Source: Escherichia coli
Lineage (GTDB): Bacteria > Pseudomonadota > Gammaproteobacteria > Enterobacterales > Enterobacteriaceae
DNA: 64,000 bases
Strand: one strand, 5' to 3'
NCBI RefSeq assembly: GCF_030013205.1
Contig: NZ_CP122648.1
A program made the position numbers. Shown one piece after another: positions 12,001-15,000 of the stretch. Within the stretch, counting starts at the first letter, position 1. Each line of letters opens with the position of its first letter.

Positions 12001-15000
12001 CGTTGTTGTCATTTGTTTTACAAAAGCAAGGGATTAAATCTCCTCCAATGGACAAAAAAATGAATAATGACAATACCGATTACGTGAGTAATGAATCAGG
12101 GACGCTTTCGCGATTATTTAAACTACCTCAGCATGGGACCACCGTCCGCACAGAATTGATTGCGGGGATGACCACTTTTTTAACCATGGTGTACATCGTT
12201 TTTGTGAACCCGCAAATCCTCGGCGCGGCACAAATGGACCCGAAAGTGGTGTTTGTTACCACCTGTTTGATTGCCGGTATCGGCAGTATTGCGATGGGGA
12301 TATTTGCTAACTTACCCGTGGCGCTGGCTCCGGCAATGGGGCTGAACGCCTTCTTTGCGTTCGTGGTCGTGGGGGCGATAGGTATCTCCTGGCAGACCGG
12401 GATGGGCGCGATATTCTGGGGCGCAATTGGGCTATTTTTGCTCACGCTGTTTCGTATCCGTTACTGGATGATCTCCAACATTCCATTAAGTTTACGTATT
12501 GGTATCACCAGCGGAATCGGATTATTTATTGCCTTAATGGGATTAAAAAACACTGGCGTTATTGTCGCCAATAAAGACACCCTGGTGATGATTGGCGATT
12601 TAAGTTCTCACGGCGTGTTGTTAGGTATTTTAGGGTTTTTTATTATAACCGTGTTGTCATCACGTCATTTTCATGCCGCGGTGCTGGTTTCTATTGTGGT
12701 GACGTCTTGCTGTGGCTTATTTTTCGGTGATGTTCATTTTAGCGGTGTCTATTCCATTCCGCCTGATATTAGCGGCGTCATTGGTGAAGTAGATTTGAGC
12801 GGCGCGTTAACACTTGAACTCGCCGGTATCATTTTCTCCTTTATGCTGATCAACCTATTTGATTCATCAGGAACATTAATTGGTGTAACTGATAAAGCTG
12901 GCTTAATAGATAGTAACGGTCAATTCCCCAATATGAATAAGGCGCTGTATGTTGATAGCGTCAGTTCGGTGGCAGGCGCATTTATTGGTACCTCATCTGT
13001 TACTGCCTATATTGAAAGTACTTCTGGTGTGGCGGTCGGTGGTCGCACGGGGCTGACTGCGGTTGTGGTCGGCGTTATGTTCCTGTTGGTTATGTTCTTC
13101 TCACCGCTGGTGGCGATGGTTCCTCCTTACGCAACCGCCGGAGCGTTAATCTTTGTTGGCGTGCTGATGACCTCAAGTCTGGCGCGCGTTAACTGGGATG
13201 ATTTTACCGAATCGGTGCCTGCGTTTATTACCACGGTGATGATGCCCTTTACTTTCTCGATCACCGAAGGGATTGCACTTGGCTTTATGTCGTACTGCAT
13301 CATGAAAGTATGCACCGGGCGCTGGCGCGATCTGAACCTGTGTGTGGTGGTGGTCGCAGCTCTGTTTGCACTGAAGATTATTCTGGTGGATTAGTAACTG
13401 GCGAGGGTTTCCAGATATCATGAGTTCTGATTACGCAGGAGAACTCATGATCTGGATAATGCTCGCCACGATGGCGGTAGTGTTTGTGGTTGGTTTTCGG
13501 GTGCTGACATCCGGGGCCAGAAAAGCGATTCGCCGTCTCAGCGATCGGCTGAATATCGATGTCGTACCCGTGGAGTCGATGGTCGATCAAATGGGAAAGT
13601 CAGCCGGTGACGAATTTTTACGTTATTTGCATCGCCCGGATGAGTCGCACCTGCAAAACGCCGCGCAGGTGTTGCTCATCTGGCAAATTGTCATTGTCGA
13701 TGGTAGCGAACAGAACCTGCTGCAATGGCATCGGATTTTACAAAAAGCCCGCCTTGCCGCTCCCATTACCGATGCTCAGGTCAGGCTGGCGCTGGGTTTT
13801 CTGCGCGAAACCGAACCTGAAATGCAGGATATTAATGCTTTTCAGATGCGCTATAACGCGTTCTTTCAGCCTGCCGAGGGCGTTCACTGGCTGCATTAAA
13901 ACCGCTTCGTCTTATCAGCCTACAGACCGCGCCTGACCTGTAGGGTGGATAAGGCGTTCACGCCGCATCCGGTATCGGAACTGATAGTAGGTGAACGCAT
14001 TATCTACGTTCTATTTACAGCAGCACCTCCAGCCCGTGTTTTTGCACAATGCTGAGCAGTTTTAATGAAATGCCATTGGGGCGTTTAGCGCCACTTTCCC
14101 ATTTTTGTACAGTTGAAACGCTGGTATTGAGATAGTGAGCGAAGACGGGCTGACTCACTTTTAATTTTTCCCGCAGTGCTTTTATCTCAACAGGTTGTAA
14201 GTCTTGCACGCTGGTCAGGCAGGCTTTGTCAAAAGTACGCATCGTTTCGGCAGAAATAGCATTGACGCTGGACAATCCAGCCGCTGCGCTGTGAATAGCC
14301 TCAAATGCAGGACTTTTAAATTTAGTTTTTGCAGTCATAGCAGATCTCTGTCAGTTCTTTAGTGTTAATCATTGCTGTTAGTTGGGCTTTCGTCAGGAAG
14401 GCATAATGCTTTGCAATTTCACGAAACCCAGCCAGTTCCTGACTATTGATGTTCGACATATCCTGTTTTGCATATAAAAACGTGTAAAACCAATTGCTTC
14501 CCCCTTTTGCCAGAATAATTGCACGCTCACGATTTTGGTGAAGGCGCTTTTTAAAAACGCCACCGCCAAGTGCATCAGCTTTACCTTGTTCCGTTTCTAA
14601 AATGGTACGGCACAACTCTTCATCTGTTATTGCATGAGACCTGGCTTCCCTTGCAAACCATTTGGTTTTAAACACGCGCATATCGTTGAGATCCTGTTAT
14701 TAAAGTATATCACCAAGTGCAATACTTTATCCCTTGTTCCCAACACAATCGCGAAAATACATATCACCTTGCCCTATGATTTTTATTTCTTCGAGCAGCC
14801 TCGAACTTTTCCCACAACACCGTAAAATTTGCAAAAACGTTAAATGCGTCACACATTTCAATGTTAAAGTGGTCGGCTTTTCCCCTGAAACATGCCACGG
14901 GTAACACCATGAGTGAATTTATTGCCGAAAACCGCGGCGCGGATGTCATCACCCGACCGAACTGGTCAGCCGTATTCTCGGTGGCGTTTTGCGTCGCCTG

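Follow-up and report, generated by a model that had tools for sequence, protein, structure and literature searches.

Organisation of the yicN-nepI locus

The window analysed here is a stretch of 64,000 nucleotides from Escherichia coli (NCBI RefSeq assembly GCF_030013205.1, contig NZ_CP122648.1), and the element under study is a pair of small genes lying between yicN (13447..13899, plus strand) and nepI (14909..16093, plus strand). Both open reading frames (ORFs) are on the minus strand and start with ATG: the higB2-like toxin gene (14322..14681) encodes a 119-aa protein that begins MRVFKTKWF, and the higA2-like antitoxin gene (14015..14338) encodes a 107-aa protein. The toxin gene comes first, and its 3' end shares 17 nt (14322..14338) with the 5' end of the antitoxin gene, exactly the layout that had been described in the original prediction, a reading of the sequence alone. 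The pair is very probably a chromosomal type II toxin-antitoxin (TA) operon of the HigB2/HigA2 family (PF06296 toxin with an XRE-type helix-turn-helix (HTH) antitoxin), resident at this locus and lost in K-12. The entire module is carried by a strain-variable segment of 840 bp (13975..14814), in place of which K-12-type genomes have 41 bp. The two ORFs are not chance ORFs, because both have strong family matches, both are under purifying selection, and the pair was conserved in 80 of 80 related loci.

The pair is already known and annotated, and is placed here as a PF06296/HigBA2-type system. In RefSeq the toxin is named 'type II toxin-antitoxin system RelE/ParE family toxin' and the antitoxin 'helix-turn-helix domain-containing protein', and the exact protein sequences of both are found under names of this type in NCBI and UniRef, on hundreds to more than 1000 contigs. 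The databases thus already name the toxin as a TA toxin and the antitoxin only as an HTH/DNA-binding regulator. Prokka-style annotation of other E. coli strains labels such a toxin-first pair 'Toxin HigB-2 / Antitoxin HigA-2' (PMC10304320). A literature search for TA systems at the yicN locus returned nothing relevant.

The RefSeq toxin start is the GTG at 14675 (14322..14675, 117 aa), 6 nt downstream of the ATG. The ATG at 14681 is the start that is conserved in about 50 homologous loci (MR[VI]FKT...), and an AGGA Shine-Dalgarno motif (14692..14695, minus strand) lies 11-14 nt upstream of it; the longer motif ACAGGAT is conserved at the same position in Enterobacterales loci. In the toxin allele of O157:H7 strain 2149 (L002, 1223..1582) the ATG start is changed to ATA, and the protein carries G61V in addition. 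RefSeq probably uses the GTG start for the whole protein family because the O157:H7 start codon is ATA.

Family, predicted fold and active site of the toxin

Profile searches of both proteins had been suggested with the original prediction. The toxin matched the Pfam family PF06296 'RelE' (RelE / HigB-2, formerly DUF1044; cut-off 27 bits) with 140.5 bits (E=3.7e-41), the alignment spanning all 120 positions of the profile, so that the expected similarity to a toxin family is present. PF06296 was the sole Pfam match of the toxin at E<=0.1, and no match to PF05015, PF09907, PF05016 or MqsR was obtained; no NCBIfam model matched. The family contains Vibrio cholerae HigB-2 and has the gene order toxin-then-antitoxin (PMC11980606). 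V. cholerae HigB2 (VcHigB2; the sequence used was checked to be identical to PDB 5JA9 chain C) itself scored 34.5 bits against PF06296, above the cut-off.

The fold of the toxin was predicted with AlphaFold from 20 homologues (mean predicted local distance difference test score, pLDDT, 86.6). When the model was compared with the PDB using Foldseek, the top seven matches were all HigB2 chains (probability 0.99-1.0, template modelling (TM) score 0.51-0.61, about 19% identity). They were followed by the RelE-fold messenger RNA (mRNA) endonucleases (mRNases) Cami1, Mycobacterium tuberculosis HigB1, YoeB and YafQ, with ParE at rank 32.

In HigB2, residues R51, R64, Y82 and K84 are required, and their substitution by alanine cuts activity strongly (3000-fold for K84, 1200-fold for Y82; PMC5416850). 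K49 has been added to these key residues, and all five are conserved in the Coxiella burnetii toxin ToxP (PMC10098735). Alignment with ToxP placed K44-K45-R46, R53 and Y70-A71-K72 of the window toxin opposite the equivalents of HigB2 K49/R51/R64/Y82/K84. In the AlphaFold model these residues are borne by the predicted strands 42-46, 53-60 and 63-71, located as in HigB2, and R46, R53 and K72 were invariant among 33 diverse homologues. As judged from this alignment and the predicted strands, the toxin carries the HigB2 catalytic equivalents R46, R53, Y70 and K72. Direct MAFFT and hhalign alignments to VcHigB2 were set aside in favour of the ToxP alignment, as their 11-residue gap would remove a beta strand; the two conflict on the equivalent of R64 only. 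The beta2-beta3 loop of the toxin (HQNRE) is 6 residues shorter than those of ToxP and VcHigB2. The toxin also has an extra C-terminal strand (110-115) with the near-invariant residues E112-I113-C114, which VcHigB2 lacks.

Domain structure of the antitoxin

The C-terminal part of the antitoxin (residues ~46-102) is an XRE helix-turn-helix domain, as the original reading had it: the protein matched the Pfam family HTH_3 with E=6e-8, and its best PDB relative was HigA-2 (E=8e-10 with the single sequence, 7e-14 with a 27-sequence profile). The HigA-2 match is limited to the HTH domain, residues 46-101/102. Further NCBIfam matches, to NadS, the MqsA family and the YiaG-like PRK10072, were all below cut-off (TIGR03830, 41 vs 61.8). 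The Pfam family MqsA_antitoxin was likewise matched below cut-off (26.1 bits, cut-off 30) and by the HTH part only, and the match to the MqsA C-terminal domain in the PDB had an E-value of about 0.002-0.02.

The N-terminal ~45 residues are strongly conserved, with A14, I15, H16, S17, R34, F36 and D37 invariant. In an AlphaFold model of a toxin-linker-antitoxin chain, antitoxin residues 7-40 were confidently helical (pLDDT ~90-95), a value that applies to the fusion only. Residues ~1-45 are presumed to be the toxin-neutralising segment, in a manner that fits HigA2-like toxin binding, although a profile search detected no sequence similarity between this N-terminus and the disordered region of V. 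cholerae HigA2 (VcHigA2).

The residues with which HigA2 contacts bases are R68, E71, N72 and R77 (PMC11006873). In the alignment they correspond to S75, Q78, K79 and A84 of the window antitoxin and, because these base-contacting residues are replaced, a different operator sequence is to be expected.

Candidate operator and promoter, and probable translational coupling

Upstream of the toxin gene lies an inverted repeat, TAAAGTATTGCAC-TTG-GTGATATACTTTA (14701..14729, minus strand), with the core GCAC-N3-GTG at 14720..14711 on the minus strand. This core occurred upstream of the toxin gene, at a distance of about 40 nt, in 69 of the 80 homologous loci (0.6 expected from shuffled sequences), mostly at positions -38 to -46. 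The family consensus is TAGCAC-NNN-GTGCTATAGT; its two arms are conserved and its central bases vary. At 55 of the loci an extended -10 element, TGnTAnnnT, continues from the right arm. In the window the candidate extended -10 is TGATATACT (14704..14712, minus strand), which overlaps the right half-site of the palindrome. A scan of 13850..14950 for sigma-70 promoters and terminators found nothing; the scan requires a -35 match, and for this reason the extended -10 was identified by eye and by conservation.

The footprint of VcHigA2 covers a single palindrome over the -10 element (PMC11006873), and the candidate operator has the same layout with a different sequence. The conserved palindrome overlapping the extended -10 is therefore likely, on the evidence of its conservation and position, to be the operator of the module. 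The 17-nt overlap, which was kept in 55 of 79 related loci, is likely to couple translation of the antitoxin to that of the toxin.

Conservation of the gene pair and decay of toxin genes

Relatives of the module were scanned in one genome per species. A relative of the toxin was found in 481 species, and the best 80 loci were analysed. An antitoxin homologue lay directly downstream of the toxin gene in every one of these 80 loci, which, together with the family matches, agrees with the type II TA reading put forward originally. Both genes are under purifying selection, with ratios of nonsynonymous to synonymous substitution rates (dN/dS) of 0.06-0.16 wherever dS was unsaturated.

Degraded copies were also observed. 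Some E. coli carry frameshifted or truncated toxin alleles (proteins P0070, P0102, P0110 and P0117). A toxin pseudogene stands beside an intact antitoxin gene in Mixta theicola (L018), Lonsdalea quercina (L035) and Winslowiella iniecta (L056), and Candidatus Pantoea formicae (L038) has truncated versions of both. The pseudogene pattern is typical toxin-first decay. Contig_45 of Erwinia mallotivora has two copies of the module (L023 and L033) about 13 kb apart, one of them with ATA in place of the toxin ATG. Two contigs of ~1 kb labelled 'MAG: Collinsella sp.' (metagenome-assembled genome; L004 and L046) carry an E. coli-type module (97% identity, with yicN) and a Klebsiella-type module, most likely through bin contamination.

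Distribution and history of the module

Of 5426 complete E. coli genomes, 1716 carried the 840-bp segment, in every case on the chromosome and as a single copy in all but one of the carriers. The remark in the original prediction that K-12 has no such genes at this position held: K-12-type genomes have no genes at the site, the 41 bp replace the segment, and the yicN-nepI spacer of strain J53, for example, measures 210 bp. Within the 41 bp, 19 of 23 positions match toxin codons (14577..14599), a match equalled by none of 300 shuffles. In Klebsiella, six species (K. pneumoniae ATCC 13883 among them) share the arrangement nepI, toxin, antitoxin, yicN, with the same relative orientations as in the window, and so do Escherichia spp. 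and Citrobacter amalonaticus. Because of the 23-bp toxin remnant and the same arrangement in other genera, the K-12 site is read as a deletion scar and not as an ancestral empty site. These comparisons indicate that the module was lost by deletion in the K-12 lineage, not gained by insertion, and that it is a long-time resident of the yicN/nepI locus. E. coli FDAARGOS_1254 (L003, 2000..2877) has a larger deletion at this site: its nepI is without the N-terminus and starts 29 bp after yicN.

Beyond the yicN/nepI locus, a tblastn search of plasmids gave 181 that carry the module family, including 19 Coxiella plasmids. A neighbour-joining tree of the concatenated toxin and antitoxin, built without bootstrap, did not decide between a vertical and a horizontal history, and the syntenic copies did not form one clade in it. 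Near-identical modules from Erwinia, Enterobacter, Edwardsiella, Tatumella, Pectobacterium and Serratia (L007, L008, L011, L013, L016 and others) form a very tight clade, and this closeness across distant Enterobacterales genera suggests recent horizontal spread of one variant. In the phage collection the sole match was a 515-kb Salmonella contig, which is not a phage.

Proposed mechanism and alternative interpretations

In the proposed mechanism, toxin and antitoxin would be co-transcribed from the extended -10 promoter at ~14704-14712, and the 17-nt overlap would couple translation of the antitoxin to that of the toxin. The 119-aa toxin would act as a RelE-fold, ribosome-dependent mRNA endonuclease that moves into the ribosomal A site and there cleaves mRNA under translation by means of R46, R53, Y70 and K72. 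The 107-aa antitoxin would dimerise through its C-terminal XRE domain, bind the GCAC-N3-GTG palindrome over the -10 and so repress its own operon, and its N-terminal 45 residues would bind and neutralise the toxin. By analogy with V. cholerae HigBA2 and Coxiella ToxP/AntitoxP, toxicity, the ribonuclease mechanism, neutralisation and autoregulation are the most likely properties of the pair.

Several results weigh against this interpretation. When the toxin was searched against PDB chains, phmmer with the single sequence gave chance-level matches only (E ~0.5) and a 20-sequence profile gave none, and hhalign aligned the toxin to VcHigB2 with a probability of 7%. Since the PDB sequence searches were nonsignificant and the hhalign result was weak, the toxin and VcHigB2 belong to distant subfamilies, and the link to HigB2 is made through Pfam, the predicted fold and ToxP as a bridge instead of a direct sequence match. 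The position of Y70 is occupied by Y or F, with F in many homologues, and the Lys-rich beta2-beta3 loop needed for full activity of VcHigB2 is shortened in the window toxin. The candidate operator of E. coli has one mismatch per half-site relative to the family consensus TAGCAC. The existence of frameshifted and O157:H7 ATG-to-ATA alleles indicates that the toxin is dispensable in E. coli.

The last two points, together with the decay of the toxin gene alone in Mixta, Lonsdalea and Winslowiella and the better conservation of the antitoxin than of the toxin, would suit a decaying relic whose toxin has little or no activity in this strain and whose HTH protein mainly serves as an ordinary transcription factor. 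We consider this quite unlikely, as the window toxin ORF is intact, with its ATG, Shine-Dalgarno motif and all catalytic equivalents, and toxin dN/dS is 0.06-0.16. It is similarly improbable that the module entered the yicN-nepI spacer recently by horizontal transfer, perhaps aided by the repetitive extragenic palindromic (REP) sequences next to yicN, instead of being an old resident. The patchy presence in E. coli (1716/5426), a left boundary within the REP cluster, the copies on 181 plasmids, the near-identical clade across distant genera and the scatter of the syntenic copies in the tree are all compatible with such an insertion; it is opposed by the arrangement shared with the Escherichia, Klebsiella and Citrobacter species listed above, by the toxin remnant (19/23, 0/300 shuffles) in the K-12 filler, and by the lack of an integrase, insertion sequence (IS) element or direct repeats flanking the module. 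With old residence, the operon could even be a domesticated one, kept since before the Escherichia/Klebsiella/Citrobacter split for a useful role and not as a selfish passenger, an idea to which we give very little credence. If it were so, the antitoxin or the complex might tune the divergent purine-nucleoside efflux gene nepI, whose upstream region the module reshapes beyond -94, or the C-terminal E-I-C strand, absent from VcHigB2, might provide a distinct, for example redox-sensitive, control of the toxin.

The biochemistry and the role of the toxin may also be read differently. The RefSeq name 'RelE/ParE family' leaves the choice between the two activities undecided, and RelE and ParE share one fold (PMC11980606), so the toxin might be no mRNase and act like ParE, as a gyrase poison, or on another target. 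This is extremely improbable, given that the toxin has no PF05016 match, that its nearest folds are those of mRNases (with ParE so far down the ranking), that the RelE-type basic and Tyr residues are conserved, and that ToxP blocks cell-free translation (PMC10098735). Alternatively, with the same biochemistry, the module could serve anti-phage abortive infection and not addiction or a stress response. Toxins of the RelE/ParE superfamily turn up more and more often in defence contexts (PMC11980606), and the module is accessory in E. coli; such a role nevertheless appears unlikely, because PADLOC gave no match for the toxin and only weak HTH matches for the antitoxin, there are no neighbouring defence genes, the phage collection held no genuine phage carrier, and in several genera the module stands in a conserved housekeeping neighbourhood. 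The interpretation of the pair as a resident HigB2/HigA2-type TA operon is thus preferred.

The significance of this assignment is small, and lies partly in the fact that a tool-free reading of raw sequence had correctly recognised a TA operon. Modestly useful by-products of the analysis are a candidate operator for the whole family (TAGCAC-N3-GTGCTA, continuous with an extended -10), evidence that the 'empty' K-12 site is a module deletion scar, and natural toxin-inactivating alleles (the frameshifts and the O157:H7 start loss) that may serve as controls in kill-and-rescue experiments. As K-12 naturally lacks the module, it would be a clean host for such a test.

REP elements

The palindromes at 13905..13975, proposed originally to be REP sequences, are genuine ones. 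They belong to a cluster resembling a bacterial interspersed mosaic element (REP/BIME-like; 13905..14008) that consists of a partial REP (13908-13925), a full REP (13938-13974) and a degenerate REP arm (13991-14007). Nested inverted repeats were found at 13908-13925/13938-13956, and the 37-mer 13938..13974 had at least 40 copies per genome in 5425 of 5426 E. coli genomes. There was also a weak match to the REP-derived Rfam family naRNA4 at 13943..14008. The REP element is extragenic, sitting between convergent gene ends. The palindromes at 13905..13975 are shared with K-12, and the left edge of the strain-variable segment follows directly after them; the degenerate arm is inside that segment.

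Other features of the window

Further along, between nepI and yicS, lies an eip/air/eilA island (16294..29722) with genes for the inverse autotransporter Air (frameshifted), EilA (frameshifted), SipB/C/D-like type III translocators and a chaperone. A link of the module to this type III secretion island was considered and rejected: O157:H7 EDL933 and 21AR0807 carry the module without the island, and the module is therefore independent of it.

At 1837..4843, between ilvN and uhpA, the window has two neighbouring genes, for hypothetical proteins of 431 and 485 aa; K-12 has no genes at that place. No Pfam or PADLOC match was obtained for either protein, and only 638 of the 5426 E. coli genomes covered the segment to at least 80%. 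At 34203..35806 a copy of IS2 lies beside tRNA-Sec (selC), accompanied by a fragment of rhuM, and the gene immediately upstream, setC, carries a frameshift.

Comparison with known systems

The name 'HigBA' is common to several systems through gene order only (PMC5416850). The original description of the module as HigBA-like stands in the sense of HigBA2 (PF06296 toxin, HigA-2 as the closest antitoxin structure) and does not extend to the Rts1/Proteus HigBA (PF05015) or K-12 HigBA (YgjN/YgjM, PF09907) systems: these share the toxin-first order and an HTH antitoxin, but the window toxin matches neither Pfam family. Acinetobacter baumannii HigBA2 was rejected as a characterised relative, since its GP49-domain toxin is of a different family. 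MqsR/MqsA is also toxin-first, and the HTH of the window antitoxin resembles the C-terminal domain of MqsA; however, the match is below cut-off, the window antitoxin lacks the N-terminal zinc-binding CxxC domain, and the toxin has no MqsR match.

With E. coli K-12 RelE/RelB, to whose toxin HigB2 is closest (PMC5416850), the window pair shares the RelE fold, a short beta2-beta3 loop and an Arg/Lys/Tyr style of active site. It differs in that RelE belongs to PF05016, the antitoxin gene comes first, and RelB is a ribbon-helix-helix protein and not an XRE-HTH protein.

V. cholerae HigB2/HigA2 (PDB 5JA8/5JA9/5JAA/8A0X; PMC5416850, PMC11006873) is the best structural match. It is alike in PF06296 membership, catalytic equivalents and toxin-first order, its operator is a single palindrome over the -10 like the candidate operator of the window, and HigA2 combines an N-terminal neutralising part, presumed in the window antitoxin, with a C-terminal XRE-HTH. 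The toxins are only ~19% identical, and VcHigB2 has a longer beta2-beta3 loop and lacks the C-terminal strand 110-115. VcHigA2 differs in its DNA-contacting residues and N-terminus, and its operator is TGTACGC-N5-GCGTACA as opposed to a candidate of the TAGCAC-N3-GTGCTA type.

By sequence, the closest tested relative of the pair is ToxP/AntitoxP (CBUA0028/CBUA0027) of the Coxiella burnetii plasmid QpH1, likewise a toxin-first operon of overlapping genes. ToxP is 30% identical to the window toxin over the full length (E=1e-17), including the C-terminal 'ELxEI' strand, and AntitoxP is 55% identical to the window antitoxin over 104 residues including the N-terminus (E=4e-37). ToxP differs in being plasmid-borne, in being annotated 30 residues longer at the N-terminus and in having kept the long Lys/Gly-rich beta2-beta3 loop. 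It is toxic and inhibits translation in a cell-free system, and AntitoxP binds it as well as the toxP promoter, the latter either by itself or as part of the complex (PMC10098735).

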